The position numbers were made by a program, and so were the translations under genes. The notes below the pieces were generated by a model. The model had not been told where the DNA came from, ran no database searches, and worked only from the letters and a program-made list of their open reading frames with translations. A stretch of DNA of 63,035 nucleotides, counting the filler, from Sanchytrium tribonematis (Eukaryota), in NCBI GenBank assembly GCA_018985235.1. It is 17 parts of 17 records of this genome, joined end to end, with 100 filler letters (N's around TTAATTAATTAA, not from the genome) between each part and the next. Parts side by side here need not be neighbours in the genome. Positions count along the whole stretch, not along the records: positions 1 to 17,920 come from JADGIG010000119.1; 16 more parts are not named here. One strand, 5' to 3'. This document shows, in pieces, positions 43 to 50,641 of this stretch. The number at the start of each line of letters is the position of its first letter. Position 1 is the first letter of the stretch.

Positions 43-201
43 TTTATAAAGGGCAATGAGATGCATTCATTGGTTTATTAGAAGAAAAGTAAGAGTCCCA
101 TGTCTATTATTGGTTTAAATGGGTGAAATGTTTCATGAGATTTGATTGGATAGCGAAAGGTTGATTGTTGATTGGATGAATATTTTACAATGAAATATTG
201 G
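43..201 (-). promoter_or_regulatory. Histone-type promoter: TATA box plus five CCAAT boxes
   Basis: TTTATAAA at 43-50; ATTGG (CCAAT on the minus strand) at 69, 109, 145, 171 and 197, all in the orientation of the histone gene. Confidence 0.6.
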
Positions 202-335
202 AGGTTTTTTTAAAATATATTTATTATGCCGTTTGCCAAAGTTACTTCTTTACAATCGGGTTCGTTTAATGATATTTATTGTTATTCATGATTTCTCCGA
301 GATGCCACAAAAATTCTTTTGATCTCCCTGTAACG

Positions 336-1311
336 ATGCCCATTGAACTGTATTCTCCAGAGTTCTATCTCACATGCGCAACTGGTGGCGTTTTAAGTTG
401 TGGTCTTACTCATTTATTTGTCACCCCATTGGATTTAGTGAAATGTAGACTTCAGGTCAACAAAACCCGCTACAAAGGTACTTTGAATGGACTCAGCACG
501 ATTGCAAAGACAGAAGGTATTGCCGGGCTATATCGTGGAGGTCTTCCAACTGCAATTGGATATTCTCTTCAAGGTGCTTGTAAATTTGGTTTCTACGAAT
601 TCTTCAAACACTATTATTCTGAACTCGTAGGGCCAGAAAATGCTGTACAATACAGAACTTGGGTGTATTTAGCAGGTAGTGCATCGGCTGAAGTGATTGC
701 TGATGTTGCGCTCTGTCCTTTAGAAGCATTAAAAGTGAAAACTCAAACCAATGATGCTTTTCAACCAGGATTAATGAGAGGAATTAGAACTATTATGGCT
801 CAAGATGGTGTCAGTGGTTTCTTCAGAGGTCTCAGTCCATTATGGGGTAGACAAATTCCATATACGATGATGAAATTTGCTAGTTTTGAGAAAGTTGTTG
901 AAACTATTTACACAAAATTAGGTAAATCTAAAGCAGAGTACAACAAACTGCAGCAATTGGGCGTTTCATTTGTAGGTGGATATATTGCAGGTATTTTTTG
1001 TGCTGTTGTGAGTCATCCTGCAGATACTTTGGTCTCCAAAATGAATAATGCTAAAAAACAAGCTGGACAATCAGGATTACAATTGGCTTCTTCTATCTAT
1101 AAGGATATTGGATTTGGAGGATTATGGACTGGCCTTGGCACTAGAATATTCATGGTGGGTACTTTAACTGCCCTACAATGTGATTTATACTAATTTAGGG
1201 TTGATTTACGATTCGTTTAAAGTCTACACTGGATTACCAACATCCGGAGGTGTAGCACCAGTGAAAGCAGCCCCATTGGCAGTTGATGGAAAGGATGCGA
1301 AAGGACATTAA
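336..1311 (+). CDS. PIC2: Mitochondrial phosphate carrier (SLC25A3/Pic2 family); exons 336-1179, 1199-1311
   Basis: Three carrier repeats (PLDLVKCR, PLEALKVK, PADTLVSK) and RQIPYTMMKF; removing the 19-nt intron restores LQWLIYDSFKV. Confidence 0.93.
1180..1198 (+). other. 19-nt spliceosomal intron
   Basis: gtgatttatactaatttag; splicing restores the conserved LQW|LIYDSFK. Confidence 0.92.
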
Positions 1312-1359
1312 TAAATGATTTGAAATGTTTTTGAAATTTTTAGATTTTCTCCTATCAAA

Positions 1360-1740
1360 ATGCGTACTGTCGCGGGATGTGTCTGTTGGGATGAATCCAA
1401 AATTTTGATTATTACTTCCAGAAAGAATAAAAACAAGTGGGTGCTGCCAAAAGGTGGAGTAGAGAAAGAGGAAACGAGTGAAATCGCGGCTATTCGTGAA
1501 CTATATGAAGAAGCAGGGATTCGAGCAACAAAATACACTAAATTACATGAAATGAGAATGGAAAGAAAGACAGGAGAACAAAATAGTGTTTGGTATAGTT
1601 GTCAGATGAGTGAAATATTGGATGAGTGGCCAGAAAAGAATGATAGACTACGTAAATTTGTGACTGTTTTAGAGGCTGGAAATTTATTGAAAAATGATTA
1701 TTTACCAGTATTAAATGCAATCAATGATAATAAATTCTAA
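1360..1740 (+). CDS. DDP1: Nudix hydrolase, diphosphoinositol-polyphosphate diphosphatase (DIPP/Ddp1/Aps1) family
   Basis: AGCVC...ITSRK...WVLPKGGVEKEE...AAIRELYEEAG Nudix box; DEWPE..R.RK. Confidence 0.85.
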   Translation: MRTVAGCVCWDESKILIITSRKNKNKWVLPKGGVEKEETSEIAAIRELYEEAGIRATKYTKLHEMRMERKTGEQNSVWYSCQMSEILDEWPEKNDRLRKFVTVLEAGNLLKNDYLPVLNAINDNKF

Positions 1741-1752
1741 TTCATTGTCAAA

Positions 1753-2169
1753 TCATTCTTTCTCCCATGCCAAAACATCTGCAGTTCCTTTGGCTTTTAC
1801 AAAGTCACCCTCTTCTTCGTCCTCATCTTTTTTCTTCAAGTACTCTGCAAAATCAGCACGTTGTCTATATTGATGACTCACGGTCCTTCCACTAGGGTCA
1901 AAATTAGTATTTTCTTCTAAAGTAGGATCTACTTCTAATTGAACAAGCTCAATTTTTGGCTGGTTCTCATATAAAGCTTCTTTCTTCTTCAAAATGTCCA
2001 TGTACATGTCATCATCAAAATGTTTGAACGGGTCTCTCTTTTCATCGTATTTTTCTGTCTTTTTTACGGAATGAAGTACATCTTTAGCCTTTTTAATGTT
2101 CTTACTCGTTGGTTTTTCTAAACAATCTTTGGTAGAGTGTGATTTTGATTTGCAATTTTTGCATTTCAT
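1753..2169 (-). CDS. SLU7: Pre-mRNA splicing factor Slu7, strongly shortened (138 aa)
   Basis: Zinc knuckle CKNCKSKSHSTKDCLEKP, then YDEKRDPF (cf. YDGKRDRW), YRQRADFAEYL (cf. LRIREDIAKYL) and terminal LAWE (cf. FAWE), in Slu7 order. Confidence 0.8.
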   Translation of the reverse strand: MKCKNCKSKSHSTKDCLEKPTSKNIKKAKDVLHSVKKTEKYDEKRDPFKHFDDDMYMDILKKKEALYENQPKIELVQLEVDPTLEENTNFDPSGRTVSHQYRQRADFAEYLKKKDEDEEEGDFVKAKGTADVLAWEKE

Positions 2170-2202
2170 GGTTTCAGGGATATTAATCTAAAATTTACAT
2201 CA

Positions 2203-2724
2203 TTATTTATTGGTTTGCAAATATTTACGATAGACATATTGTCTCTGGACAATTAAAGCTGCTATGAACAATGTAATTCCAATGCCAATACTTGCCAGGA
2301 TTGTAGCAGTTGTTTTCCACGAATTTCGGGATGTTTCCCACTCATCTTTTTTATCCGGCTGCGCTCTAATTTTATTATCAATTGTAGAATCTACTTGTGC
2401 TCTTACTACAGCCAATTTGGTGATGGCCAATGCCAAGTAACCTAGAATTAAAACAAGAACAGCCCAGATGCTACCCAAAGCTACCTTCTCATGCTTTTTA
2501 ATCAGACTTAAGGTGCCCAATAATGCTGCTATAACTAGCATACCTCCTTTAGTCAATGAAATAGCATCAATGAAAGGTTCTACACCATCATAAATATCTA
2601 CTATTCCCCAAACTAATAATATGAAATAAAGGATACATAATCCCTGTTGAATGCTTAAGCAGCAGCATTTGGGCGGTCCCACCGTCACTTCAGGTTTCTC
2701 TTGGTCTTGAACTTGAGTATTCAT
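2203..2724 (-). CDS. Small membrane protein with about 4 TM helices
   Basis: CCCLSIQQG N-terminal motif, four hydrophobic segments, TAA next to AATAAA. Confidence 0.7.
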   Translation of the reverse strand: MNTQVQDQEKPEVTVGPPKCCCLSIQQGLCILYFILLVWGIVDIYDGVEPFIDAISLTKGGMLVIAALLGTLSLIKKHEKVALGSIWAVLVLILGYLALAITKLAVVRAQVDSTIDNKIRAQPDKKDEWETSRNSWKTTATILASIGIGITLFIAALIVQRQYVYRKYLQTNK

Positions 2725-2785
2725 ATTCAAAAAATTGTTTCAAATGTCCTTAACGTCGTCTAAATATCTATTTATTCTATATAAT

Positions 2786-3388
2786 TTAATAAGTATACAC
2801 TACGGTAGTGTTTGCGTATGATTTTGCAAATTCAATAAAAGCAGCCTTCACGTTTCCAACAACATTCATTTGGAAATTTCCAATAGGACAAACTGCGTCT
2901 TCACAATTTGGACCTGGGGTTACACCAGTCAAGGCGAAATAAGCAGGAATAGATATGTCATGAGCGCTTCCGTTATCCAAAACAATAACTTTAACAGTCT
3001 TACCGTTGAAGATCAAATCTACCAAATCAAAACAATTTCCACCTCCCTTGACCATATAGCCATTTTTTTTAGCGAATTCCCAAACCAATGTCAAATCTTT
3101 CATACCACCTTCAGAAGTTTTCACCAGATCACATCCACCATATCCTGCCTCTAATGGAGCTTCCTTGTTGTAAGTATGGTGACATGTTAGACCGCCCCCA
3201 ACCTGATTCTGACCTAGTGCTTCTATGCATTTTGCAGGTCCAGTGGATGCCACCCAACCATTTCCAGCGGGAGCAGATAAATCACTTGTTAGCTGTGTAT
3301 TTGGGGCAGGAACTGTGGAATTTACAGCAACGGTATTGTTCTCAGTCGATTGACTTTGAGGGAGAGCAGAAAGTATGCTAAATAACAT
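2786..3388 (-). CDS. Secreted double-psi beta-barrel (RlpA/expansin/barwin-like) protein
   Basis: Short signal peptide, S/T-rich linker, G.C...GGGNC...GKTVKVIVLD...HDIS.PAY.AL pattern of DPBB domains. Confidence 0.55.
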   Translation of the reverse strand: MLFSILSALPQSQSTENNTVAVNSTVPAPNTQLTSDLSAPAGNGWVASTGPAKCIEALGQNQVGGGLTCHHTYNKEAPLEAGYGGCDLVKTSEGGMKDLTLVWEFAKKNGYMVKGGGNCFDLVDLIFNGKTVKVIVLDNGSAHDISIPAYFALTGVTPGPNCEDAVCPIGNFQMNVVGNVKAAFIEFAKSYANTTVVYTY

Positions 3389-3426
3389 TGCGATTTGGTG
3401 GAGCGTGAGTCTTTTTAACTACGCAT

Positions 3427-3558
3427 TGATCACTCGCACAGATCAGATTGAGGGGTTTATCGCATCATAGGGGCACCAAAAAATGGCACAGATCATGGCC
3501 ATCATTGCAAAGATCATCAATTGATTGACAGATCACCTAGAATGTACAAATTAGATCA
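3427..3558. promoter_or_regulatory. Cluster of six GATCA motifs upstream of the DPBB gene
   Basis: GATCA occurs 6 times in about 130 bp, three of them as ACAGATCA. Confidence 0.4.
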
Positions 3559-3593
3559 ATGGAAAGAAACATAATTAAGACATTGTAAATTTA

Positions 3594-4107
3594 TTACAAA
3601 GTCCCACAGTCAGAAATGACAATTTTCTTTGATGTAGCACCACTTTGGGTACCAAAAGATTCGATTTTCTTCACAATATCCAATCCATCAATGACTTTAC
3701 CAAAAACGACATGTTTGCCATCTAACCATTCAGTTTTGACTGTCGTGATGAAGAATTGACTTCCGTTGGTGTTTGGACCAGCATTTGCCATGCTTAATTG
3801 ACCTAAATTAATTAGATTTACCTGGACCAGTGTGCTTCAACTTGAAGTTTTCATCTGCAAATCTATTTCCGTAGATAGACTTTCCACCAGTGCCATTGTG
3901 ATTCGTAAAATCACCACCTTGCAACATGAATTGTGGGATAACTCTATGAAATGAGCTTCCTTTGTAGCCAAATCCCTTTTCACCGGTACACAAGGCTTTA
4001 AAGTTCTCAGCGGTCTTAGGCACAACATCGCTGTTCAATTCCATGATAATTTTACCCAAAGGTTGTCCGTCAGCGGTCACTTGAAAAAACACACGAGGTA
4101 ATGACAT
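3594..4107 (-). CDS. CPR1: Cyclophilin A peptidyl-prolyl isomerase; exons 4107-3822, 3802-3594
   Basis: [40 protein letters not shown]; the two ORFs are joined by a 19-nt intron giving [14 protein letters not shown]. Confidence 0.96.
3803..3821 (-). other. 19-nt spliceosomal intron
   Basis: gtaaatctaattaatttag; splicing restores [14 protein letters not shown]. Confidence 0.95.
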
Positions 4108-4170
4108 CTTCTTGCAAAGAGGGGAATCTCCTTTTATTTGAATGCGAAAATTTGTTTATTTTTTTGCCAT

Positions 4171-4659
4171 TTATTGCAAAATGCATTTCTTCTTTTTTTC
4201 AGAGTATTCTGAAAGAAAATTAATTTGAACGTTATTAAATGCTCTTTTTCTGTATTTCCGAACATATTCTATGCATTCTAATGGGTCCATGCCTGCATGT
4301 ATTAGTGCTAATCCCACCAAAACTGGCGCTCTACCTATTCCAGATACGCAGTGAACTGCAATCACCTCCCCAGGTAAATCATTTATAAGTCGAAACCATT
4401 CTTGAATTTGTAATTTGTTTGGAATTCCACCATCCACAAATTTAATGTCATCGTGGATTGTTATTCCATCATCTAAATATGGCTGTACATCATAGGTGTT
4501 ATCGCATAGTCTAAAAACATGTCTAATATTAAATTCTTTTAATTTTTGAATAGTCAACGCGGAATGGGTATTATCAGGGCAATGCATGATTACAAATTTG
4601 TATAATTTAAATTCAATAATATTTGACATGGCCAATATCGCAGATAAATCTTTACTCAT
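4171..4659 (-). CDS. PTP4A: Prenylated protein tyrosine phosphatase type IVA (PRL/PTP4A family)
   Basis: FVDGGIP, HCVSGIGRAP active site, RKRAFN, polybasic tail and C-terminal CAAX CILQ. Confidence 0.85.
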   Translation of the reverse strand: MSKDLSAILAMSNIIEFKLYKFVIMHCPDNTHSALTIQKLKEFNIRHVFRLCDNTYDVQPYLDDGITIHDDIKFVDGGIPNKLQIQEWFRLINDLPGEVIAVHCVSGIGRAPVLVGLALIHAGMDPLECIEYVRKYRKRAFNNVQINFLSEYSEKKKKCILQ

Positions 4660-4691
4660 GCTTTTAAAAGTTTCAAAAATTAATTTATTTT

Positions 4692-5108
4692 TCAAAACAT
4701 CATCCATCCAAGTCTATTGCCATGGTTTCTTTGAGTACCAGTAGTGCAACCACCTGAAACTTTTAGCACACTACAATTACCACAATTTGCACATTCTTGT
4801 ACATGTGTGCAGTTACTAATATACCCTTTTTTAGTCAGAGGATCTAAATAACATTTTCCGTCAGCTACGACAGCCACAGTCACATTAAAATACTCCCACT
4901 GATATACATTTTGGCTAAAAATGGTTGTTAAGCCTGTTTCATTACATTGAACTTGAGTCACATTGGTACTACCCTCTATCTTTTTACAATCCCATGTATT
5001 GGCTTTATTACAAGTAATTGTAGGATTAAATGCCTTCCATAAATAGTAGTTGCTGCAATCTGAGCCTACTGAATATAGCATCAAAGAATAAATAAGAGTC
5101 AAAAACAT
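4692..5108 (-). CDS. Small secreted cysteine-rich protein
   Basis: Hydrophobic N-terminus, 10 Cys, several N-glycosylation sequons. Confidence 0.6.
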   Translation of the reverse strand: MFLTLIYSLMLYSVGSDCSNYYLWKAFNPTITCNKANTWDCKKIEGSTNVTQVQCNETGLTTIFSQNVYQWEYFNVTVAVVADGKCYLDPLTKKGYISNCTHVQECANCGNCSVLKVSGGCTTGTQRNHGNRLGWMMF

Positions 5109-5251: not shown

Positions 5252-7273
5252 ATGAACAAACAAAATCACGCGATAAATGAATTTTATAATACACAATTAG
5301 ATTATATTCGTGATTTGGTGACTATTCAAGAGGAATTTATCAATCCAATTGTAGAGAAAAAGATTTTAAATGATAAAATGATAAATATTATTTTTTCCAA
5401 CTTGAGTGAAATATTAGAAATGGAACGGACATTGTGTCATTTACTAGAGAATTTTAAAGCTAATGACCATTTAGATATAGAAACCATTTGTAAATTAATG
5501 GTAAAACACCATTCCAAATACTTTATTTATATTTATTATGGTAGTCATAACCAATTACAATTATCGAAATTAAAAGAAATAGGCAACCACAAGCAATTCA
5601 AATCATTTCTTGAAGAGAAATATACAAGCAACATATTAAAGGGACTTGATTTGGCATCTTATTTAATAAAGCCAATTCAAAGAATATGTAAATTACCTTT
5701 ATTATTTAAAGAAATGAAAGACATTGATAGTGTAAATGTGATTAATCAAGTTATTTTTGACTATCAGAATCTAATAAATATTGTCAATGAGGCAGCCAGA
5801 AAACCAAATTCAATTATTTGGAGTATTGATTTAGATCATGAATATCAAGACCTCAAATCCGAAGATCGCGTATTACTGAGAACGATTGATTGCAAATTAT
5901 ATAAATCTCTAAAAAGAAGTACTAAATTGCTAGTATTCAACGACTTGATATACTTTAGAGATAAAGCTAATTTCTCCCTAAGTATTGAGAACATTAAAAT
6001 ATGCGATATTAGCGATAGCGAAGGAGATCGCTTAAGCGTGGTTTTAGAAGGCGACTGTCCATTACTGATCCAATTCCCTAATTCGGGTGTCAAAGCGGAT
6101 TTTTATGATGTTTTAAAAAAGATTTGCCATGTAGAAATTGAAGTCTATCCAAAAGATTTAGCTCAAAAACTTATGACAGAAACAGCCAATATCGAAAAAC
6201 CTGAGTCCACTAGACGTAAGTCATCCAGATCAAGTGTATTACCTGATGCTGAGCATTCGCAACAAACCATAAAGATGCAATTAGAAAATTATCAAATGAT
6301 GCAAGCAAAGGAGACTATCAATCGACAAGAATCACTTATTAAAGACTTAAATAACGAGGCAATTCAAAAGAGCAATTATATTAAGCAATTGGAATCTCAA
6401 TTGTATGACCGAGACAACCAATTAAGTATACTATCATCTGAAATGGAACAATGCACAATTCAAATCATGAAAGAAAAAGAAAAAGCCACATTATTAACAC
6501 AACAAATCCATTTAATAATGGATGAAAATGACACAAATTCCAAATTGATAACTACCTTTAAAAATCAAATTGAAGATTTAAAAAGCGAAAACTAGCTGTT
6601 CGCAAATGAAAATGTTAAACTAAAAGAATCAATAAAATATATGGAAATTGATGCTGCAGACATTTTAGCATCTAAAATTGATATGGAAGCCCAGCTTGCG
6701 ACTAACAAAATATCAAATGTAGATTTAAAAGTGGAAATTACACAATTAAAATGTGAAATTCAACAAATTAGAGATGAGCCACGTAAAGATTATGAAAAAC
6801 AATTAGTGGAAATGACCATGGAAATTGGAAATAAAAATAATCTAATTGTTGAAATGGAGAAAGAAATAAAGCAAAGTCATTTGAAGATTGTATATCTGAA
6901 TAATGATGTTGACATTTTAAAAAATTTGAATTTAGATCATAAAAGTTTAAAGTTGTTTCTCGAAGAGAAACTTGACTACATGCTATTAAAAGAGACTCAA
7001 TATGCCACGCACACCTCGCAACTATTGCAGCGTATTATAAATCAGAACCAGAATTTTAAAAATGAGAATAGTCTGCTTACTGCTAGTATTTCGAAATATA
7101 AAATTACTACAAATTTAATTTTGGAATGGTTCGAAATGGCACTTGGCAAAAGAAACGAAGATGATGAGTTGAAAAAACTACTTAACTTAGGATCTGAATT
7201 AGTTAATAAGTACGAAGACTTGAAAGAGGATTATGTGAATTTATTGGGCAAATTTCATCAAAATGATAAATAA
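5252..7273 (+). CDS. Rho guanine nucleotide exchange factor (DH-PH) with long coiled-coil tail; in-frame TAG at 6593-6595
   Basis: AINEFYNTQLDYIRDL, IFSNLSEI and LASYLIKPIQRICKLPLLF DH motifs; ORFs 5252-6595 and 6641-7273 share a frame with continuous coiled-coil character. Confidence 0.8.
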
Positions 7274-8240: not shown

Positions 8241-8700
8241 TCTTGGAAAAATATAAACAGTTACATAATTTCGCTCCGTTAGCCAGCCAATCAAATTTAA
8301 TGTTCTATCCAATTAACGCAATATCATTATCCAATCAACATCAACGTGATGGCCGAAAAAAAGCTTAAAGGTGGATGTGTAACAGTTTGTGTTCAAATAG
8401 ATTTAAAGTGATTGGTCAGTGAACAAATATAACAATTGAAAAAAAACATTTGTAAAAGTACGAAGTTAAGATCTGAAAAAGCAAGAGAAAAAAAATTTTT
8501 TAAAGACGTTTTGAATAACGTGCAAAATCAAATATCTGATGACTCGTTAAAAACTAATAGATATATTAAAGGTGAATGTTCAAGACTTTGATCAACAACA
8601 ATCAAGTGAATATAGTGTAATCAATAGTGACAATGATTGGATTATCCACGTGTGTAAGAATTGGAATTAGAATCAATAAATATGGACACTCAAAATTAAA

Positions 8701-11391
8701 ATGACTTCGTCAACATCATATACTATTTCGGAAGACTTCCTGTATCAAACTTTTGAACCATTGAATGGTGATTTTACAACCTGGGCAAAGGGACTAAAGA
8801 AATTGCTAAATCAAGAGGAGGATTTAGCGGAAAAGGTCAAAGTGAAAGCCTTGTTGTACTATTTGCCACCATTTGTGCGCAGAGAAGTGATATCGGAAAT
8901 AACATCATTGGATTTTGAGGTGATGATTAGTAAATTGGAAGAAAGATACAAGCCGACAGAAGGATCGGCTGACTTTTATCATGAGGAGCAGAAAAAGGAA
9001 GAAAAAGGTGTAGAATTTGTAAAGAGAATGGAAGAATTAGGAAACAGATTGAAAGTTCCTAAATCAGACATTATGAGACAAATTAAGCTTTCTTTGACAA
9101 AAAATTTAAGTGATAGGGTTGTATCAAACTACTATCCAGATTTACAACAATTAAAGCAAGCGATCAATGATACAGAAAAATTATTAGATACAGAGTTAGA
9201 CGAAAAGAAGAAAAGAAAAGTGGAAAAGTGTAATAAATGCAATAGAATGGGTCATAGTACAGAAGAATGTAACGGACCTAGCAAGTGTTATAGTTGTGGA
9301 CAATATGGGCATAAACAATGGAATTGTCCAAAAGAAAATGAAAAGGGAGAAAGCAATGACAAAAAACCAGATAAAGTAATCAAAAGAGTGGGTTGTGAGC
9401 AGATTAAAGTAGATAAATATCAAATGTTAGAGATAGAAGGAGTTTTAACTAGATGTCTAATTGATACTGGAGCTGATATTTCATGTCTTGGAAGAAATGT
9501 AGTGAGTGATAGAAACATACCAATAGTAATAGAGTCTGGATATGTTAATGGGATAGATGGTAAAGTTAAAATCTTAGGAAGTTGCAAACTGGCAGTTAAA
9601 TTTGGAGATGAGGTTATTAAACAACAATTCACGGTGTTGGATTGTAATCAAGACATTATTATTGGAAGGGATCTAATCGCAAGACAAATTAAATGGTTAT
9701 TTGATGTGGAAAAAGAACAAAACTAATTTAACAATTCAAAAGGACAAAAATATGATTCAAATAGAAAAATGGAAGCAAGATTATGCATACGATCCTTTTC
9801 AACCTGCCAAAGTGAAGCCAATTGTAGTTAAATTAAAAGATAATGTTGATTTAGAGGAGTTACGTCAGAAACCGTTTGGTCGTTACAATAGAGATGACAT
9901 GGAAAAGAAAACTAGAGAATTAGAAGAACAAAATATACTAGTACGTCGTACATCACCTATTGCATCACCAGCTTTCTTAAAGCCTAAATCAAATGGAGAT
10001 TTTAGATTTATTGTGGATCTGAGAAAAGTGAATCAAGTAATGGTATCATGTGGCTATCCACTGCCTTTAATTAAAGATGAGTTACAGAAGTTTAGAGGAA
10101 GTGTGGTGTTTGCTAAGATAGATTGGTCAAATGCGTTTTTTGCCATTCCACTTCATGAAGATTGTTGGTGGATATATGGGATAGCAACATCAGTAGGACA
10201 ATTTGTTAGTACTAGATTATTAATGGGTGGATGTAATAGTACAGGAGAATTTCAACACATTTCTGATACAGCTTTTAAGCATATTAAAAACAAGGCATCT
10301 TATGTAGATGATATGGTCCTGTATTCAAGCAGCGTTGAGGAGCACATGGTGCTTTTAAAGGAATAATTTGGCACCGCTAGTGCTTTAAATTTGCCTATCA
10401 ATTGGGATAAATCAAGTTTTCTAAAAACTAGTGTTACTTTCTGTGGATTTACAATAGATGAGCATGGCTACACATGTAGAGAGAACTACATTATTCAATT
10501 GGAAGGAATACCAGAGCCTACTACGAAGAAACAAGTGCAAAAGCTTTTAGGAATGTTTAATTGGATTAGAGATTTTGTACCTGGTTATGAAAATTTGATG
10601 CATCCAATAAGAAAATGCTTAGTGGATGGACCGTTTAAATGGAGTAATGAAGCAAAAATTGCCTTTGATGATTGTTTATCTATTCTTAAATCAACACGAT
10701 TAATTTTCTTTGAAGGGGGACCATATGAGGTTTATACAGATGCTAGTGGATTTGAGATCGGGGGAACTGTATACGATAAAGGAAGATTATGTGGATTGTT
10801 TAGTAAAGCTTTAGGAGAATCTGAAAGAAGATACTGTACCTTCGAGAAGGAAATGTTTGCTATTGAACACTGCTTTCTCAAATTTGGTAAATTCTTTGGT
10901 AATTCACTAACTTACAGAAGCAGATATAGATAAAGACTTTGTATAAGATTTTTGTACAGGAAAAGGATACATGGAAACAATCCCAGAATCAGAACCAGAG
11001 TTGCCCAAAGCACCAGAAGCTGATAAAATCAATAAGCATCTAAGCAAAGCACACGCATATCATGCTGGTATCGTATCTATGAGACTAATCTTAAAAAATT
11101 TGAGTTGGGACGGAAAGGACAAAGATATAATCAATTTTGTAAAAAGGTGTGAGTACTGTATTGAAAAGAACACACCAAAGCAAACAAAGATGCATTTTAG
11201 GATCCCAAGACATATCGATCACTATGTAGGCATCGATTTAATGGAGATGGACTTTGAGGAGGAAGAATACAAGTACATTGCAGTCATTAGAGATATGTTC
11301 AGTGGGGTATTGCATTTAGAACTACTTATTAACAAGACACCCAGAGGAACTTGCAGGGCACTAATGAAATACTGTTCTTCATTTGGTATTC
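8701..11391 (+). mobile_element. Ty3/gypsy LTR retrotransposon A (gag, 2 CCHC knuckles, protease, RT, RNase H, integrase), disrupted
   Basis: CNKCNRMGHSTEEC, CYSCGQYGHKQWNC, LIDTGAD, FRFIVDLR, YVDD, TDAS, H...H...CEYC, VGIDL; order PR-RT-RH-INT; stop at 10364-10366 and frameshifts. Confidence 0.9.
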
Positions 11392-11950
11392 CAAATGATT
11401 CGTACAATTGGAGTAGAAAAATGGCTTATTAATTTACAACCAATCGCATTTGCTTTAAGAGCGTCAATTTATTTTTCTCTTAAACAAAGTCCATCAGAGA
11501 TGATATTTGGACTTGACATGGTTCTACCTCAATTTAATAACAACAAACGAATTTTTGAATCTCCTACACAATCTGTTATAAGAGATTTAAAATTAACCAA
11601 TAAGAAACGCATTAATCATCCATTTAAAATTAGCGATCTTATTTTATTGCGTAAAGAAGACAGAAACATGACATCTAAATGGGATACTCAACAGGAAGGT
11701 CCTTATAAAATTGTAGAATGTCATACAAATAACGCTGTAACCATCAACAAACATGGATTATTACAAAGAGTTAAGTATAGAAAAGTAATACCATGTAAAT
11801 CAAATGATGGGAAAGATGGCAGAATGTCATGAATTGACATTGGATGTGGCATTTATTGATTAATTGGATGTGAATCCAACATTTAGATCTGCTATTTAAT
11901 AAGAGATCCCTCAATAAATCAATCTATCTTTTCATTTTAGAGTCTATGTG
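11392..11950 (+). mobile_element. 3' end of a second gypsy element (B): integrase C-terminus, polypurine tract and probable LTR start (LTR end not determined)
   Basis: 11392-11456 is identical to 19686-19750; SKWDTQQEGPYKIVE GPY motif; purine tract GGGAAAGATGGCAGAA followed by TGTCA at 11825. Confidence 0.7.
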
Positions 11951-24520: not shown

Positions 24521-25397
24521 ATGTCTGCTTTTGGTGATTTTAAACCATTATGCCTCAAGACAGTCCTCCCATTCTGTAAAGTATTCAACAGTGACACAGT
24601 AATTCCATGGAAAGACTCAGCTCAAACATGTCAAGCTTCTCGAGTTACTTCTATAGACTCTGATTTGGGTGAGATTATTGCTTGTTTCCTCGCATTTCTA
24701 GGAACATTAATCATTGCATATAGGACATACACGAAATACGCGGCAGTAGGACGCATAGAAATGAATATTTTGAATATATTTTACGGAGGTATTTTACTAA
24801 CAAATGTTTTACTGGGAGTTCCTAGTTTAAGTGATCATTTACCACAAGTAGCAGCTGCGTACTGTGCTTTTATATGTGGTTTCTTCTGGGTGCTATTCAT
24901 GAATGGATTCGTCGGATATCAAGTCGTTGAAGATGGATCTGTGTTGAGTGTTTGGGGAATATTGTTATCTAGTTTATTATTTTCATTTATTGGTGGATAT
25001 TACTCATATGGTGTCGGATGGGGTGGCATCTCTTTATTACCAATCCCCAAATCCAATTCCCCTACACTTTATGGCATATTATTAATATGGCCACTCATTA
25101 GCATGGTTTTATACTGCGGATTAATGGTTATTTTAGTATTCAAGAATTTAAGTCAGCGTAAGCCCATTGTTTACCTGTTTGTAAGTGCCATTTTGATGAT
25201 ATTTTCATGTGTTTTCTCCTTTGCGTTGACAGATCAAATTTGCTCAGGAAGCAACAAAAGTTTATCCGGATTACCATTTGGTGTGATATTTGGATTCCTA
25301 GCATATTGTATGTTATTCAAGTTTTGGTTTTCCATCACAGAGGGTATTTTTAATTTATTTAGACCAATTTGGTGATTTTGATGATGACAAGGTTTAA
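24521..25397 (+). CDS. CHS7: Chitin synthase export chaperone Chs7; exons 24521-25343, 25363-25397
   Basis: FGDFKPLC...LPFC, KYAAVGRIEM, NGFVGYQVVEDGS, IC...GLPFG, KFWFSITEDQF after splicing. Confidence 0.9.
25344..25362 (+). other. 19-nt spliceosomal intron
   Basis: gtatttttaatttatttag; gives SITE|DQFGDFDDDKV ending at TAATAAA. Confidence 0.85.
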
Positions 25398-27764: not shown

Positions 27765-30700
27765 TTATTTACACAATATTTGCAATCTTACATTTGCCTC
27801 TAAATATCCTTTATCAAGTGCTTGCTGGTAATAATTAACAGCCTTATTGATATCCTTGGTGACATCCAGTCCAAATTCATAGATAATACCCAATGAAAAT
27901 AATCCAACTTTGTCTCCATTTGATTTTTCATACCAAATTCGTGCTTTTGTAAAGTCTTTCACACAGCCAGAGCCATTGTAATACATGGTACCCAAATTGA
28001 CACATGAATTTGGCTCATGTAAATCAGCACCTTTTTGAAATAATTCCATTGCTTTTGCATCATTTTTAGCAACATATTGACCATCTCTATACATGGTGCC
28101 CAAATTGTTAAATGCGACTGGATGATTCAATTCTACTGCTTTTGAAAAGTACTCTACTGCTTTTTTATAATCAATTGGACATCCAGAGCCTAGTTTATAA
28201 CAGATCCCAACTCGGTTAATTGCAACAATTTCCCCCAAGTTTGCAGATTGCAAAAATAGTTCAAATGCTTTTACCTCATCTTTTACGACTCCCTGACCAT
28301 CCGCATATAGATTCCCAAGATTATTAAATCCCACAGCTTTATTTAATTTCATCGCTTTTTCAAAATATAATTTGGCATTTGAAAAATCACGCAAATCTGT
28401 ATAAATATTGCCTAAATGACATATTGCCTCATCATATCCCTTTTGAATCGCAATTTTATATAATAGAATTGCTTTTTGAACATCTTTAGGAACGCCCAAT
28501 CCATTTAAATTCAAATATCCCAAATTAAAGAAACTCACAGATTCTCCCATATTTGCAGCTTCTTGATAATATGAAGCAGCCATTATATTATCAACTGCTA
28601 CACCATACCCATTTCTATAAAAAATACCCAATTGATTATACGAGGTATAACTTCCCAAGAAGCTACCGAGTTCATAATATTTCAAAGCTTTTGTATAATT
28701 TTTGTCTTCTTCATATAATTTAGCCAATGAATGAGCCGCACTACCATGATTATTCTTTGCAGCAGACTCGTAAAAAGTCATAGCCGCAGCTCTATTCATG
28801 TTGCATCCTATTCCATCTCTATTGAGCCATCCCAAATAATATGCCGCATATGCATGCTTTTTAATGCTTAGAAACATTTCATATGCTAGTTTCTCATTTT
28901 TATCAATACTCAATCCAAACAACTTCATAATTGCAACTATAAAAATGGCTAAAGGATCTTTCAAAGGTTTCAAAATTTGATATGCACTCTCAATTGACTT
29001 GCTGCAGCCAATTCCAAAGTAAAGAAATATGCAATTCCAAGTTGGATCACTTTTAATAGTATTATATAGTTTAATATACTCATTCACATTCGATTTGAGA
29101 GCAGTAATCAAATATTGCTCAATATAATAGATTTCATATTGATTCAATAATGTGATGAAATTCTTTTTATATTGACTCGGATTACCAATGGATTCCTCTA
29201 ATTCCTCGTGAATAGACTGCTTTGTGGGCGGACCCACTAGATCTTCAATAATTTCATTTGAAATCAAGGAGTCAGAATTTACATCAAGTAAATCTTCCAT
29301 TTCTTTAACTTTAGTAGTCGCTGATGTATCACCATACTTTTCAGCATTTCTGTAATAATCTAGTGCCAAATTTAGATTTTTATTGATGCCGAGTCCACCT
29401 TCATAAAGCACTCCCAAAGAGTAATGAGAAGCTGCAACATTTGATTTGGCACCCAATTCATAATATTCTCTCGCTTTTACATAATCTTGCGGTACTCCAT
29501 AGCCATAAAAGTAAGCGGTACCAATATTATTAGACCCAACTGCCAAACCTTGACTCTCTGCAGCTTTAAAACATTCTAATGCTTTATCGTATTGCTTCAT
29601 TTCTTGATATAAGTTGCCCAAATGAACATGAGATTGATAATAACCCATAGAAATGGCCACTTGAAAATTTGATTTTGATTTCTCTAAATCTTTTACACAT
29701 CCAGTTCCTACTTGATACAATCGACCTAATACATGATAACTAGCACTTTCTCCAAATTCAGCACCTTTTGAATAGTATTTAAATGCTTCAGACATGTCTA
29801 AATTCTTGTAAATTCCATTTTCATAAAAATGCGCAACTTGGTGGTATCCAGTGGAATAACCACCTTTTGAGGCTTCAAAATACATCTCAAATGCCTTTCT
29901 TTGATCTATTTCTACACCCATACCATCTTTGTAGCACCAAGCAAGATAGAAATATCCTGGGGCAATTTTCAATTCTGCTAATTTTTTGTAATATTCAACT
30001 GCAACATTTAAATTTTTAACGGTCCCTGCACCATATTGAGACATGAATCCTAAAAATAGATTAGCAAGTGGCTCAGTACAAGACTTGAAAATATTGAAAA
30101 TATGAGTCTCATTGTTTGCAAAATGGATGGAAAAGTAGTCTAGAACATTCATGAAGAACTTGCTGGAGTACTTGAATTTGATTTGGTCGACAAGAGACTT
30201 GAATGCGTTCATTTCTATAAAAAATAACTCAATATTATAAATTTGATTTGTATTGATTAATTTCAACAAAGCTGCTTCAAATGTATCTATATCTTGACCA
30301 ATTAGGGCATTTTCTACTAGCTTAAATAAAGGCAAGCCATTAGTACCATCTAAATTGACACTTTTCTTAATGATTTGAGGTGTCGGGGACTTGATTGAGT
30401 TTGGAGAGGATGAGCTCGTTGAGCTATCATATTTAGAGTCGTTTTTGACATCTTTTGTCGGAATAGATTGTGTAGAAACCTGCTTATTCACTTGTTTGGA
30501 TGGCTTATCCAGTAAAGCAACCATTTCTTTCATAGAAATGCGGTCTTTTGGATGTTGGGTCCAACCTTTAATGATAATCTCAAAAATCGAACCATCAATC
30601 TCTTTTGCTGAATATGGCCGCATACCTTGTCCAACTGCCTTTTCCATATCTTTGGAACCCATATCTTTCCATGGAATCGTTTTCGTGCAAATTTCCCCGA

Positions 30701-31979
30701 GTACGATTGAAAATGAAAATACATCTCCAGCAAATGGGAAATCTTTTCGAGACTGTAAGTGCTCCGGAGAAATATCCCAATATTCTGGTGCCCTCCACTG
30801 GTCAGTTCCTGTAATTCTACTTTTTCCTAGGGACGACATATTGGAGGAGTTTGTTAATTTGGCCATTCCCAGGTCGATAATACGCGGAAGGAATAATTTG
30901 TCTAGCATGACATTGTTAGATTTTATATCATTGTGTGCAATCCCGTTGGCATGCATATACGCCAAACCACGGGCAATTCCCAGCTGAATTTTATTCAAAT
31001 GTTCTGACGGTAGATTCTCATCAAAATATAACCAGCTGGATAGTGTATTATTATCCATGTACTCAGTAATGACGGCCAGATTTCCATCAACAGTGCTAAC
31101 ACCATAAAATTTTACAATAAACGGAGATTTCTGCAACATTTCAAATGCTTTGACTTCTTTTAGAATGGCTTTATTTTTGAGAAAAGCATCTGATTTGACT
31201 TTGTAGCTACCAGGATCTTTGAATGGAATATCTTTCATTCTTTTAACAGCAACGTTTATCCCAATCCATTGGCCTAAATAGACGGTACCAAAGGAGCCAC
31301 TTCCCAGTTCTTCTTCTGTATCCACGACCAAGTCTTTGATGTAATCTATCTCAAATGGCTTGGATTTTTCGATTATAACCTCTTTTGTGACCTGAATCTC
31401 TTGAACCGTCACTTGCTGATTTTTTGAGTTCATTAGCTGCTCAAACATCATTTTCATAGCTTTAATTTCATTCTGAGATGCTTTGATATTGTCGTTGACA
31501 AGTTTTAAGACTTGGGCAGAGTCATCTGTGTTCATTTTATCCATTTTACCAATTAAAATCTCCAATTGACCAGATATCTCTGCATCGTTTTTATTCAATT
31601 GGGAAGTATCTTCTTTTATATCTATCGTGTTGCATACAACGAGCTCGTTAAGCAGTCTCGACAACTCCTCGTTGAATTTTCCAAACTCATCTTTAAACTT
31701 TTCAGCTTTAATCATCTTGGTGATCAAGTTTTTATCCTCAAAACGCGTGATAAATTTTGAAATCTCTCCCATGGTGTTCAATAATGTATTCAAAGTATGA
31801 ATCGTAGTCGTAGAAAATGTTTTATTTCCCATTTCTTTTAAAATCAAATGTAACCGAGTCAGTCTAGTATGAAGCTGCTTCGCTTCATCTAAATTATCAC
31901 AGGCTAACTTAATCCTTTCTAGAATTGGTAGAATAAAGCCAATAACTTCAAAAGCTTTCCCGATCAATATTACTTCCAT
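27765..31979 (-). CDS. MLKL-like N-terminal helical domain + TKL protein kinase + two arrays of Sel1-like repeats (1404 aa)
   Basis: Four-helix N-terminus (N..EAKQL..RL..L...L), GSGSFG, VAVK, HNDIKSNN, DLG, GTDQWRAPE, DVFSF; many (N)LG..Y..G.GV.KD..KA..Y repeats. Confidence 0.88.
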   Translation of the reverse strand: MEVILIGKAFEVIGFILPILERIKLACDNLDEAKQLHTRLTRLHLILKEMGNKTFSTTTIHTLNTLLNTMGEISKFITRFEDKNLITKMIKAEKFKDEFGKFNEELSRLLNELVVCNTIDIKEDTSQLNKNDAEISGQLEILIGKMDKMNTDDSAQVLKLVNDNIKASQNEIKAMKMMFEQLMNSKNQQVTVQEIQVTKEVIIEKSKPFEIDYIKDLVVDTEEELGSGSFGTVYLGQWIGINVAVKRMKDIPFKDPGSYKVKSDAFLKNKAILKEVKAFEMLQKSPFIVKFYGVSTVDGNLAVITEYMDNNTLSSWLYFDENLPSEHLNKIQLGIARGLAYMHANGIAHNDIKSNNVMLDKLFLPRIIDLGMAKLTNSSNMSSLGKSRITGTDQWRAPEYWDISPEHLQSRKDFPFAGDVFSFSIVLGEICTKTIPWKDMGSKDMEKAVGQGMRPYSAKEIDGSIFEIIIKGWTQHPKDRISMKEMVALLDKPSKQVNKQVSTQSIPTKDVKNDSKYDSSTSSSSPNSIKSPTPQIIKKSVNLDGTNGLPLFKLVENALIGQDIDTFEAALLKLINTNQIYNIELFFIEMNAFKSLVDQIKFKYSSKFFMNVLDYFSIHFANNETHIFNIFKSCTEPLANLFLGFMSQYGAGTVKNLNVAVEYYKKLAELKIAPGYFYLAWCYKDGMGVEIDQRKAFEMYFEASKGGYSTGYHQVAHFYENGIYKNLDMSEAFKYYSKGAEFGESASYHVLGRLYQVGTGCVKDLEKSKSNFQVAISMGYYQSHVHLGNLYQEMKQYDKALECFKAAESQGLAVGSNNIGTAYFYGYGVPQDYVKAREYYELGAKSNVAASHYSLGVLYEGGLGINKNLNLALDYYRNAEKYGDTSATTKVKEMEDLLDVNSDSLISNEIIEDLVGPPTKQSIHEELEESIGNPSQYKKNFITLLNQYEIYYIEQYLITALKSNVNEYIKLYNTIKSDPTWNCIFLYFGIGCSKSIESAYQILKPLKDPLAIFIVAIMKLFGLSIDKNEKLAYEMFLSIKKHAYAAYYLGWLNRDGIGCNMNRAAAMTFYESAAKNNHGSAAHSLAKLYEEDKNYTKALKYYELGSFLGSYTSYNQLGIFYRNGYGVAVDNIMAASYYQEAANMGESVSFFNLGYLNLNGLGVPKDVQKAILLYKIAIQKGYDEAICHLGNIYTDLRDFSNAKLYFEKAMKLNKAVGFNNLGNLYADGQGVVKDEVKAFELFLQSANLGEIVAINRVGICYKLGSGCPIDYKKAVEYFSKAVELNHPVAFNNLGTMYRDGQYVAKNDAKAMELFQKGADLHEPNSCVNLGTMYYNGSGCVKDFTKARIWYEKSNGDKVGLFSLGIIYEFGLDVTKDINKAVNYYQQALDKGYLEANVRLQILCK

Positions 31980-32127
31980 GATATTGGCCTAGTCAGATAG
32001 ACATAGCTACAAAGTGGGTCAATTAATTCAAAAGACAAAGTCCCATTGCACTCAGGACTTTTAGATCATTTGATTGGGTATTAGACAGGGATTTCCCCGT
32101 TTAACATCGTTGTCGAATCATTCCAAA

Positions 32128-33478: not shown

Positions 33479-34559
33479 TTAAGTAGTAAATCGCTCCGCA
33501 ACATCAAATAGCAACACCGTTCTCGTTCTCTGTATTTTAGGTGCAAAATCTGGTGCTTTATAACTGGCTCGTTCTCCCATGACCACTAAATTAATTTAAA
33601 TTACATCGATGTAAAAAGAAGTCTCTTCCAACAGCATCTTTTTTAATAATAGGTGGATCTGGTAATTCTGGAAAGAAGGGAGGAACGCCTTTGCGAGTTG
33701 CAAACATCAATTTGTAACCATCTGGATGGGGTGTTACAGCAGCAATCACATGATTTTGTTTAGAGGTATTTGTTTTTATGTCATATACAGCACCAGGTTC
33801 TACAAAAACAATCGTCACAATGTCATTTCCAATATGTCTTTTTTTCTCAATTTGTTGTCTGTCATGTGGATTATGAGGAAGAAAAGCAGCAACATGGAAC
33901 ATAATTTCATATCCCTGCCACTTGGTATACAAAGATTTATCACCAGTCAAACTATTTTGAACATCAAGACCGGCTTTATATTCTTGCCAGCCTTTTAATT
34001 TTATTTCTTCACCTAAAAAACTCAAAAACTCTTTATAAGCAGGTGTACCATCTTTTTCTGTATTTCCAAACATTTCTTCTTCTGTAGACTGTCCATTTTT
34101 AATATGCGTGAGTCCAAATTTGTAACTACGAATCACTTGTCTTTCTTCCATACTCAATAATTCATTGGGTAAACTAGAGTCTTTACTAATTTGAAGTAAA
34201 TTAGTGGGAACTGTTTCTGTACATGCCCGAATCACAGCATACGGAGTAGGTCCGAGTCCAAATAATTTCCGGATGAATGAATTTTGAACTTGATCATATA
34301 AACACGACAATCTAAGGGATCCATCTGGTGATCTAACAAGTACTTTGTACGTAGCACCATCTAATATCACAGATACAGCCATAGGGCCCTTTGGAGATTT
34401 GGGAATCAACAAGTTCAAGTGAGATTTACCAAGAAAATTATCTCTATAATAAATAATATCTTTTTCACATTCTTGTAATAAACTATCGTGAACTCCCGTC
34501 ACTCTCGCATTTGGGTTCGTGGACTGAATTTCAAAATCAGAGCCAGTCGCTTTCAACAT
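33479..34559 (-). CDS. Rap GTPase-activating protein (Rap1GAP family); exons 34559-33605, 33585-33479
   Basis: YKFGL...GQSTEEEMFGN, YKAGLD, EIMFHVA, KKRHIGNDIV; spliced tail LVMGERASYKAPDFA...RTR. Confidence 0.9.
33586..33604 (-). other. 19-nt spliceosomal intron
   Basis: gtaatttaaattaatttag; restores FFLHR|LVMGERA (cf. FLLTKLINAENA). Confidence 0.92.
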
Positions 34560-35681: not shown

Positions 35682-36708
35682 ATGATTTCTAAACTCAAAT
35701 TAGTTGTGATTTTAGTATTTCTGACCATCCACGCTACCACATTACACGTATTTATCCAAATACCCGCGTATATCTTCATCAAATTGAACCCACTTATTAA
35801 AAACAAACAAATATACACTATTTGTAGCCAGCAAGCATTAATTGCATGGGGACATGTCAGCGTGATTATTATGCAATATTGTTTACCAGTCACACTCGTA
35901 CTATCTGGACTATCCAAATTTCCACGTGAAAATGCGATTGTTATTTCAAATCATTTAACTTATGCAGACTGGTTATTTTTATGGATGATTGCTCATTATA
36001 ACAATAGATTAGCAGGTATCAAGATAATTTTAAAAGAATCACCCAAATATGTCCCAATATTCGGATCTGCCATGGTTTTATTCGAATTCATATTTTTAAA
36101 AAGAAAATGGGAGCAAGATAAACCAATGCTAGCTCATAAACTACAATCTCATGTGAATACCAATGACATGTTCTTGATGATATTCCCAGAAGGCACCATT
36201 TTAGCAGATGATACATGCGCAAAATCAAAAGATTTCTGTCTCAAAAATAATTTGGTAAATTTCATTTATTTAGAAAGTATCCGACATGACACTCGTACCA
36301 CGCACAACAGGACTCTCATTTATCACTCAGAATATAGAATATGATGCCATTTATGATTTTACAATGGCATTTAAAGATTTAAGCAAGCAAGAATATCCAT
36401 ATCAAAAATATCCACTTTTAAGCATGTTAACCACTTCTAAATACCCTAAAGAAGTCCATTTTCACTGTAGAAGAATCCCCAAATCAGATATCCCACAACC
36501 CATTGATCAATGGCTTTATAAAATATTTGAAGAAAAAGATGAAATGATTCAAAATTATTTGAAAACTGGTCAATTAAAGCACCCGACTGATGTAGAATAT
36601 CATGAAACTAGATATAAACCTGCTTTTAAAGAATTTCCCATTCAAATTGCCTATTTATGGTGTTTGATGGCTTTATTTGCTGGAATTTACTTGAACAATA
36701 AATATTAA
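35682..36708 (+). CDS. Lysophospholipid acyltransferase (LCLAT1/Cst26-like); exons 35682-36254, 36274-36708
   Basis: NHLTYADW, FIFLKRKW, IFPEGT, LVPRTTG, IYDFT, WLYKIFEEKD. Confidence 0.9.
36255..36273 (+). other. 19-nt spliceosomal intron
   Basis: gtaaatttcatttatttag; joins the two ORFs as NNL|KVSDMTLVPRTTG. Confidence 0.92.
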
Positions 36709-43295: not shown

Positions 43296-43569
43296 GAGAG
43301 TGCAAAAAGCATGGATGAAATTAAACGACAAATATTGTCAGAATTGGCTAGTTGGAAGCATGAGAAGGAAATCAAACGACGCCCTAGACAATTGAGCACG
43401 TAATATTTATTAATTTAGATTAAATGCGCCTGATTTACAACAGGCTAAAAAAGTGCCAAAAGCCAATTATGAAACGGATAAAGTCAATGCATTGGCTGAG
43501 GAACATACAGATGTCGTGGTGGATGAGGATTTGGAGAAAGAGCTAGCTGGAATGGGATTAAAACAATAA
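43296..43569 (+). CDS. 3' end of a gene resembling a MAP kinase C-terminus; exons ..43399, 43419-43569
   Basis: ESAKSMDEIKRQILSELASW resembles the MAPK terminal helix; the spliced ORF ends at TAA within AATAAA. Confidence 0.5.
43400..43418 (+). other. 19-nt spliceosomal intron
   Basis: gtaatatttattaatttag; matches the consensus and removal extends the frame by about 50 codons. Confidence 0.8.
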
Positions 43570-45122: not shown

Positions 45123-45960
45123 AAGATCAAAGAAGATTGTATTATGGGATATACTAAAAAAGGATGGGTTACTCAATCATTATTAATCAAATATCTGAAT
45201 TACATTTTACCATTTGGAAATGCATTGCTTATTTGGGATCATTGTTCAGCACATGGAGCTTCTAGAACAGAAAATATTATGAGTGAATATTTGGCAAATA
45301 AGAAAATTAAATGCTTATATGTTCCAAAAGGTGCAACTGGATATTGCCAAGTAGCAGATGTGGCTATTATTAGATCTTTAAAGTGTAATATCAGAAAGTC
45401 TATTAGAAACTTTTATACTGAACAAGTCAACAATTTATGGGAAAATTCTGAATTGTCAAAAGTATTAAAAAAACCACCTATTGGTAATTTAAGAAAATGG
45501 ATTGTAGAGCATTGGAATCAAGTTCCACTTTCCATTATTGAAAATGGTTTAAAAACATGTTACTACAGTGAAAATATTGGAGATTTGCACATGGCAAAAG
45601 TGAATGATCTGAGTATTTAATATTAATTTAGAAAGAGATTTTTTAAATGCATGGGAAAGAGTCCAAATGTTTGACGAAGTCATGGCTTCTTTAACTGGAG
45701 GTCCAGCATATTCTGGCTCATTTGATTTTTGCGATGATATTGAGATTACTGATGAAGGAATTCCAGTTTTTGACTTTGAAAATCAAACTGAAGAGCCAGA
45801 AGTGATGGTGTATTCATTGTTAAGTGAAGAAGAATAAATATATTGATTTGATAGAACATTTTATTAATATGGGGGGGGAATTGTATTTTTATAGTCGAAA
45901 TCCTATCCAATTTCCCCGGGGGAATTGATTAGGAGGGGGGAATTGGATGGGTAAACACTT
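45123..45960 (+). mobile_element. 3' half of a pogo-like (DDE_1) transposon; transposase exons ..45612, 45632-45837; probable right terminus at 45960
   Basis: KGWVT, LLIWDHCSAH, VPKGATGYCQVADV (DD39D spacing); subterminal GGGGGAATTG x3; ends ...GTAAACACTT-TA. Confidence 0.8.
45613..45631 (+). other. 19-nt spliceosomal intron in the pogo-like transposase
   Basis: gtatttaatattaatttag; removal opens a 68-aa acidic tail ending GAA TAA A. Confidence 0.82.
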
Positions 45961-48752: not shown

Positions 48753-49442
48753 GTATTATTGATGTCACCATCACCAATGCCACGCCACTAGGAAAGAATT
48801 GCAGTCTTGCAAACAATCCAATGTCACCAGGAGTGTTTGGTAAAACATTTAAAAATCAATGCAACGTGACTGGCGTGTACGTGAAGAGTAACAGCACCTG
48901 TAGGATATTGGCATTGGGTGAATTGACGACTATTGCTTCCAAAACAAGCAGAAAAACATCTGCTTTTCTAACAACAACGGAAACCAAAGGAGCTCCTACA
49001 GCAGCGTCTCAAACGACTCAAGATTCAAAGCCTACAGCAGCTATGACTTCAGTCGTCAGTCAAATGCCACAAGGAACGATAACTTCCATTCCAGCTCCTA
49101 CAATTGTTGTACGTATTTTGCATTTATTTAGGTCCAATTCGCTCAACATCATCCGCTTCTTCAACGTTTGCTAAAGCAAATGAACAAACGACATTATATG
49201 AGACATCTATATTTAGTGATTTTATTGAGGTTCATGACAACAATACGACTGAAGAAACAGCAGCAGCCCCATCTCAATGGCAATCACAACAAATAACTGC
49301 TGAATGGTCGTTGTTCAGAATTATCAAAATATTAATTGATATTTTATTATTTCTACTTATAGTCAGACGGACACCTTCTCAAAAGTTATTCACAAAAAGT
49401 GAATCTCGCGGTGCCACTAGTCGTTTGGGTACTACTTTTTAA
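48753..49442 (+). CDS. S/T-rich single-pass surface protein, 3' part; exons ..49112, 49132-49442
   Basis: Mucin-like stalk and TM; two overlapping ORFs joined by a 19-nt intron. Confidence 0.65.
49113..49131 (+). other. 19-nt spliceosomal intron
   Basis: gtattttgcatttatttag; joins the ORFs as VVR|PIRSTSS. Confidence 0.82.
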
Positions 49443-49507
49443 AGATTTAATAAATATTTACCGAAATCACAAGTATTCTCAAGTAGGTCAATTGAATCTT
49501 CCCTAGT

Positions 49508-50595: not shown

Positions 50596-50631
<36 letters not shown>

Positions 50632-50641
50632 TCCGACTTCC

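Follow-up and report, generated by a model that had tools for sequence, protein, structure and literature searches.

How much of the splicing factor Slu7 does a cell keep when its introns are tiny and uniform? The question is raised by an open reading frame (ORF) of 138 amino acids (aa) at positions 1753–2169, minus strand, of a stretch of DNA of 63,035 nucleotides (nt) from Sanchytrium tribonematis (the window), which consists of contigs joined by runs of N and a fixed linker, the first contig covering 1–17,920. A reading made from the sequence alone had called this ORF a miniature Slu7 that shrank because the introns have a fixed, minimal distance between branch point and AG. In our comparisons with Pfam, with relatives and with local introns, the orthology, the completeness of the gene, the minimal spacing and the loss of the part associated with long spacing held up; the claim of causation stays at the level of a plausible proposal.

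The ORF is, judged by its sequence, a divergent orthologue of Slu7. The Slu7 family (PF11708) is the best of its two Pfam matches (E-value 2.9e-4, 21.2 bits), with residues 40–117 lying on positions 2–100 of a 253-position profile. A match to this hidden Markov model had been proposed as a check on identity, and the outcome is borderline: the right profile was found, at a score short of the 27.9-bit gathering cut-off because under half of the model is covered. A word-seeded search yielded three proteins among 24 candidates of 75–242 aa, namely the query (P0001) and two short relatives, P0002 (148 aa, 54% identical) and P0003 (113 aa, 57% identical); P0003 passes the Pfam cut-off narrowly, at 28.8 bits. 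phmmer (HMMER), run against 1.84 billion representative proteins, returned seven matches: the query, P0003 and five longer proteins, of which four pass the Slu7 cut-off and the fifth, P0008, was rejected as an unrelated repeat protein. The profile of the three short proteins (A1) aligned to P0009 in hhalign with 97.4% probability (E-value 1.4e-11), and five longer Slu7 queries reach the 1753–2169 locus at E-values of 6e-9 or better. Among the ORF, P0002 and P0003 (54–60% identity), 51 columns are invariant, concentrated in Slu7 motifs.

Structural and metagenomic searches added little. Queried singly against the PDB, the ORF protein found Slu7 chains only at E-values of 0.89 and 8.9, and the A1 profile found no Slu7 chain there; a seven-protein profile (P0008 left out) matched only three PDB sequences, all SLU7, a partly circular result that we used for numbering only, as the profile itself includes long Slu7 rows. 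The fold model is weak (predicted local distance difference test, pLDDT, 63.5; predicted template-modelling score, pTM, 0.22), and the top seven Foldseek rows obtained with it, all spliceosome entries holding Slu7 (E-values 0.35–3), are too weak for use. Atlas clusters ranked Slu7 top for P0001 at 0.89, which we treat as a lead only, and assigned P0002 to generic knuckle clusters. None of the 597 pattern matches from a metagenome scan with A1 was confirmed.

The order of motifs is that of Saccharomyces cerevisiae Slu7 (382 aa, PDB 5mps_c) and human SLU7 (586 aa, PDB 5xjc_Z), from knuckle to AWE: CCHC knuckle 3–16, KRD 44–46, RxRxDxAxYL 102–111, GDFV 121–124 and AWE 134–136. The zinc knuckle, CxxCx4Hx4C (2122–2163, minus strand, as for all parts of the ORF), matches Cys120–Cys133 of human Slu7 and is the predicted anchor on the Prp8 N-domain; its ligands C3, C6, H11 and C16 are followed by K44-R45-D46, the combination by which a Slu7 is recognised. 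The KRD motif and the next helix (residues 41–68, 1966–2049) belong to the central Slu7 region, K44, R45 and D46 being invariant in all seven aligned rows and the helix spanning 53–68 in the weak model. The NFDP..RxRxDxAxYL block (residues 89–111, 1837–1905), placed by sequence alignment and the weak model at the start of the C-terminal globular region, has R102, R104, D106, A108, Y110 and L111 invariant in seven of seven rows and a modelled helix at 103–115, and the GDFV..LAWE block (residues 121–136, 1762–1809) is placed by alignment. The RxRxDxAxYL helix, the GD motif and the AWE of the Slu7 C-terminal region are thus all found.

By a manual count on the alignments, the ORF spans residues about 120–333 of the 586 of human SLU7. 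Relative to the human protein it lacks the N-terminal arm (human 1–119, with PWY) and the YDPKTR stretch (about human 284–310), has a shorter linker, and has nothing past AWE (human 334–586, with ADPT and KYGG). On this alignment, no more than about a third of the usual length of Slu7 is left, the yeast and human lengths agreeing with the roughly 380 and 590 aa quoted earlier. Nine mostly charged residues replace YDPKTR between the RxRxDxAxYL and GDFV blocks; the sequence-only reading recognised the terminal truncation and overlooked this internal deletion. The PWY-bearing arm is missing from P0001, P0002 and P0003 and present in all four longer proteins tabulated, and YDPKTR and the ANPT/ADPT..KYG tail are missing from all three short proteins. 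P0002 starts 8 residues ahead of the knuckle and finishes at AWE; P0003 finishes 4 residues past AWE. ORF residues 72–80 resemble the yeast stretch around EIE, presumably the Prp18-binding element, a resemblance that P0002 and P0003 do not keep. As a separate observation, P0002 has a stretch around RQREDVA in common with P0010, a Slu7 of 363 aa.

The uniformity of the putative introns of the window, at 19 nt, is a more surprising result than the short Slu7. A first scan for AT-rich GT..YAG stretches of 11 to 99 nt that bridge open frames gave six at 19 nt and at most two at any other length, looser settings returning more. A second scan used a motif drawn from the candidates, GTR..WAYTTAG, with length free from 12 to 40 nt; of its 15 matches, nine measure 19 nt, none 13–18 or 20–30 nt, and six are singles at other lengths, one of them a 5′ extension of a 19-nt element. 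In 60 runs of a Markov null, the mean count at 19 nt was 0.23 and the top count at any length of 15–25 nt was 3. The consensus of the nine elements is GTAWTTTWWATTWATTTAG. GT, the TTAG end and an A at −6 occur in 9/9 (the ends and the A at −6 being part of the search motif); outside the motif, T at −8 occurs in 9/9 and A at −10 in 8/9, so that the A at −6 falls in a TACTAAC-like register, TACTAAC being the branch-site register of fungi. The elements are likely introns, at a density (nine in 63 kilobases) that makes the window intron-poor. The earlier statement that every intron has the same minimal branch-to-AG spacing therefore stands for all nine elements, the sample being a single 63-kilobase window of joined contigs.

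Removing an element restores the protein exactly in two of the nine cases. In the aromatic amino acid hydroxylase gene (56788–56806, plus strand) the first exon ends at Biopterin_H position 205 and the second starts at 206; in the RapGAP gene (33586–33604, minus) removal gives 352 aa and a gapless alignment over 350 aa to P0017 of Paraphysoderma. Three further cases are consistent with removal: cyclophilin (3803–3821, minus, on the Slu7 contig; exons on Pro_isomerase 2–86 and 91–158 of 159; 164 aa after removal), the chitin synthase export chaperone Chs7 (25344–25362, plus; first exon reaching profile position 278 of 287; 285 aa) and an acyltransferase (36255–36273, plus; Acyltransferase and Acyltransf_C in different frames on either side; 335 aa). 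For the remaining four, the evidence is the motif and the bridging of frames: a mitochondrial carrier gene (1180–1198, plus, the second of the two elements on the Slu7 contig; 334 aa, second exon unscored in Pfam), a gene with no Pfam match on either side (43400–43418, plus), a DDE_1 endonuclease frame at 45123–45834 (45613–45631, plus; Pfam scored the first exon only) and a Ser/Thr-rich gene (49113–49131, plus). The transposon-derived DDE_1 gene appears to use the tiny-intron format of its host. A further 19-nt candidate in a transposase frame (13575–13557) was excluded for a mismatch in the 3′ motif, and an Rfam search of the window returned no small nuclear RNA.

The RapGAP element lies at a position common to four close relatives (78–83% identical), which all lose homology at the same point. 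Two of them, P0013 and P0014, read on for seven codons and then rejoin the out-of-frame text of the window, which indicates a 19-nt register; P0016 ends before the register can be read. For the carrier and RapGAP genes, the proteins in the databases (P0004, P0012 and P0013–P0016) finish inside or just past the 19-nt elements, and their predicted C-termini are likely wrong.

RapGAP also bears on lineage. Its best named matches are from Blastocladiomycota and chytrids (55–60%), and its closest named relative is P0013, at 83% identity, which its source labels Amoeboradix gromovi. In a tree that took in 28 of 120 listed rows, a five-row clade has support of 100/100 on a stem of 0.79 changes per column and is weakly sister (88/66) to Paraphysoderma. 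The window most likely derives from a sanchytrid fungus (Sanchytriomycota). A metagenome scan with P0013 gave 11 loci at 31–59% identity, none from the close clade, and was not used. In the sanchytrid genome paper, ORFs were called with TransDecoder on contigs (PMC8371127); its main text contains no ‘splic’ and a single ‘intron’, inside a reference title. Our reading of the accompanying annotation table covered 3,755 rows for A. gromovi and 171 for a second species. It includes PRP22 (E-value 9.5e-215) and PRP17 (1.6e-87) for A. gromovi, and counts PRP8, CWC22, CWC25, ISY1 and U2AF as present; neither set of rows has one for SLU7 or PRP18.

The bounds of the ORF proved as described in the sequence-only reading, with a start 2 residues ahead of the knuckle and a stop 2 residues past LAWE, and so did the gaps of 33 nt upstream, to a 173-aa membrane-protein ORF, and 12 nt downstream, to a convergent Nudix gene. 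The gaps by themselves do not justify the conclusion drawn from them, that further exons would not fit, as 33 nt could hold a 19-nt intron; that conclusion is supported by a direct scan of the minus strand over 1650–2330, which found 16 GT..YAG pairs of 11–30 nt and none of 19 nt, so that an intron of the local type is absent. Three candidates were rejected: an 11-nt GT..TAG within the gap upstream (no A at −6, wrong length) and, both noted by eye, a 48-nt GT..AG that would fuse the membrane protein to Slu7 (no A at −6, not 19 nt) and a 19-nt GT..AAG over the LAWE codons, the removal of which would delete a conserved motif. Extra upstream exons are rejected because P0002, too, begins at its own Met. 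The ORF is very probably complete. A 4,615-base contig of run X1 that spans 157–4771 differs at six letters, none of them inside the ORF, an agreement that is not independent, as X1 is possibly the window's own source.

What the missing parts would have done is suggested by published work. That Slu7 is needed mainly for distant 3′ splice sites, as the sequence-only reading stated, agrees with its dispensability in yeast at distances below nine nucleotides (10.1101/212811). According to the same report, the yeast Slu7 N-terminus lies where the branch-to-AG loop exits, and its truncation abolishes help at long spacing; in the P complex it contacts Cwc22 and, on Prp8, the linker and endonuclease domains, the knuckle sits on the Prp8 N-domain, and the C-terminal region sits on the RNaseH domain. 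In human, the loop between branch and 3′ splice site is reported to lie at most 20 Å from the modelled Slu7 N-terminus (PMC6461851); in Schizosaccharomyces pombe, short, AU-rich introns are described as less dependent on Slu7 (PMC5728500); and the knuckle and the EIE element are reported to recruit Slu7 early (PMC8022279).

We favour the reading that this Slu7 is a brace only, its N-terminal arm having been lost under relaxed selection, and assign it a probability of roughly 0.55. By analogy with the yeast and human structures, the knuckle would dock on the Prp8 N-domain and the central part would pass the endonuclease domain; with its shortened C-terminal block touching the RNaseH domain, the protein would hold the step-2 conformation. 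The A at −6, as the presumed branch point, would give a lariat loop of 14 nt and leave a tail of 5 nt; with a tail this short, AG could dock without a looped-out tail, and no loop would remain for the arm to handle. Selection on the arm would have relaxed once spacing became fixed, and the shortened Slu7 would in turn disfavour introns with longer spacing. The loss of the N-terminus fits relaxed selection because the yeast N-terminus serves long branch-to-AG distances, and all nine elements, with five bases after the predicted branch A, are inside the range in which yeast Slu7 is reported to be dispensable. The losses of the C-terminal tail and YDPKTR would likely be ordinary erosion of peripheral contacts. 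A causal link from short spacing to short Slu7 is plausible on this comparison.

Several observations weigh against this reading. The losses in Slu7 extend beyond the N-terminus, to a C-terminal tail and an internal part for which no link to spacing is reported, and P0010 also lacks YDPKTR, which by its sequence is an independent loss in another lineage. The ORF and P0002 (21.4 bits) both score below the Pfam cut-off; P0003 lacks the knuckle, whether because its start was called wrongly, because an intron intervenes or because it has truly lost more; and neither the word-seeded nor the HMMER protein search returned a Slu7 labelled Amoeboradix gromovi. The motif of the second scan was built from the candidates themselves, so that the scan offers a fair test of length only and would pass over introns with other 3′ ends, and RapGAP relative P0015 has a stop where a 19-nt intron would put AG, so that its intron is not of 19 nt and 20 nt fits. 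The lineage depends on one gene, RapGAP, on a different contig from Slu7, and the comparison with unshortened proteins on three genes. PRP16 likewise has no row in the annotation table by name or by KOG identifier, and the absence of SLU7 and PRP18 from that table is therefore not to be read as loss. Finally, Cyanidioschyzon merolae lacks Slu7, Prp18 and Prp17 and yet has 18 of 38 introns spaced at 20 nt or more (PMC10158995), so that loss and spacing can be uncoupled.

The main rival is general erosion: in a compact parasite, a general bias towards deletions and a high rate of evolution would have shrunk Slu7 and introns alike, with no causal link between the two. The flanking gaps of 12 and 33 nt, the stem branch of 0.79 changes per column, the erosion of Slu7 at both ends and internally, and the case of C. 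merolae all speak for it, as does the neutral erosion to a functional floor that has been proposed for tiny introns (PMC10245619). We nevertheless consider it doubtful. Three other proteins of the window are of normal length, RapGAP having 352 aa where the median of 49 homologues is 356, and cyclophilin and Chs7 filling their Pfam profiles; many core splicing factors are recognisable in the sanchytrid table, SLU7 and PRP18 not among them; and the lost N-terminus is the very part that has been tied to long spacing (10.1101/212811). Less probable still is a split or duplicated Slu7, with its missing parts or a full-length copy elsewhere in the genome. Such a split is conceivable, as the halves of Yju2 are reported to function in trans (10.1101/212811); tblastn with seven queries found no other Slu7 piece in the 63-kilobase window, no longer relative of the short proteins appeared among 7,990 candidates scored with the three-protein profile (weak evidence), and a normal Slu7 should map among the 3,755 A. 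gromovi rows, which hold none. That the ORF is a decaying remnant or assembly artefact with no working protein, as the Pfam score and the broken frames elsewhere in the window might suggest, is very improbable in view of the open frame with all four zinc ligands intact, the 51 invariant columns, the X1 contig identical over the ORF, and a third-position guanine-plus-cytosine content of 0.32, within the range of five other genes (0.24–0.32).

The brace-only reading can be set beside other genomes with reduced introns. Microsporidian introns, at about 23 nt and up, are longer than the 19-nt elements of the window. Short introns are known in microsporidia, myxozoans and Dicyema (PMC13644364), and intron-poor eukaryotes with a convergently fixed branch-to-AG distance have, as here, a strong 3′ consensus and a constrained distance (PMC2483917). 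The introns of Stentor coeruleus resemble the present elements in fixed length, AU-richness, a branch A mostly at a fixed place and a 5-nt tail, and differ in measuring 15–16 nt and having no strong branch consensus, with Slu7 and Prp18 reported as undetected (PMC9505925); the Sanchytrium window has 19-nt elements in a TACTAAC-like register and keeps Slu7, in shortened form. The 16–17-nt introns of Mikrocytos mackini and the 18–21-nt introns of chlorarachniophyte nucleomorphs share the narrow size range, those of Mikrocytos also being conserved in sequence; in Mikrocytos, just 17–19 spliceosomal proteins are reported to have been identified, and metabolic and transporter genes to be free of introns (PMC10245619), whereas the elements of the window lie in enzyme and carrier genes, in a fungal lineage with many core factors in the sanchytrid table. 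In C. merolae, second-step factors are likewise preferentially affected (PMC10158995); here, by contrast, a short Slu7 is retained and Prp17 is annotated in the relative A. gromovi. By our comparison, Stentor fits the trend between spacing and Slu7 and C. merolae does not. Neither a Slu7 as small as this one nor 19-nt introns in sanchytrids turned up in our literature search, which reached a minority of subscription journals.

The window has other features. On the Slu7 contig, a RhoGEF/coiled-coil frame (5252–7273, plus strand) has a single in-frame TAG at 6593–6595 followed by 225 further open codons; the TAG has no intron signal, the X1 contig has the same letters, and a nonsense allele or read-through may be involved. 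Degenerate gag-, protease-, reverse transcriptase- and integrase-like retrotransposon frames, so labelled by eye, lie at 8680–11832 (plus), followed by a Helitron-like frame (by eye) and a DDE_3 transposase frame (Pfam). Farther along are a 1,407-codon frame with a protein kinase and then many Sel1-like repeats, by eye (27765–31988, minus); a leucine-rich-repeat-like gene (49496–50417, plus) that changes frame near 49880 and contains no 19-nt element; a large-subunit ribosomal RNA fragment (50511–52152, minus) with two group I introns, at 50653–50923 and 51580–51874; and an ankyrin-repeat frame (54322–55920, plus) with one in-frame TAA at about 54907–54909, after which it continues in frame.

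For sanchytrids as a group, we would tentatively, and at a little under even odds, propose a near-invariant class of 19-nt introns together with a Slu7 that serves as a minimal Prp8 brace, its long-spacing arm lost, in a spliceosome that is possibly free of Prp18. The few lineages with fixed ultra-short introns would then be joined by a fungal one, whose relative retains many core splicing factors. If true, 19-nt introns have been missed by intron-blind gene calling, and intron-blind sanchytrid protein sets carry wrong C-termini (as in P0012 and P0013), which bears on claims of gene loss and on phylogenomics. A short, diverged Slu7 falls under the Pfam cut-off, and reported ‘losses’ of Slu7 in organisms with tiny introns therefore merit a re-check. 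A natural minimal Slu7 of about 135 residues is also a template for a yeast truncation that tests a long-standing proposal, in which long branch-to-AG loops are the task of the N-terminal arm and the rest only braces Prp8. If the reading is true, the sanchytrid protein would be a natural deletion experiment, separating the bracing role of Slu7 from its role in reaching the 3′ splice site.
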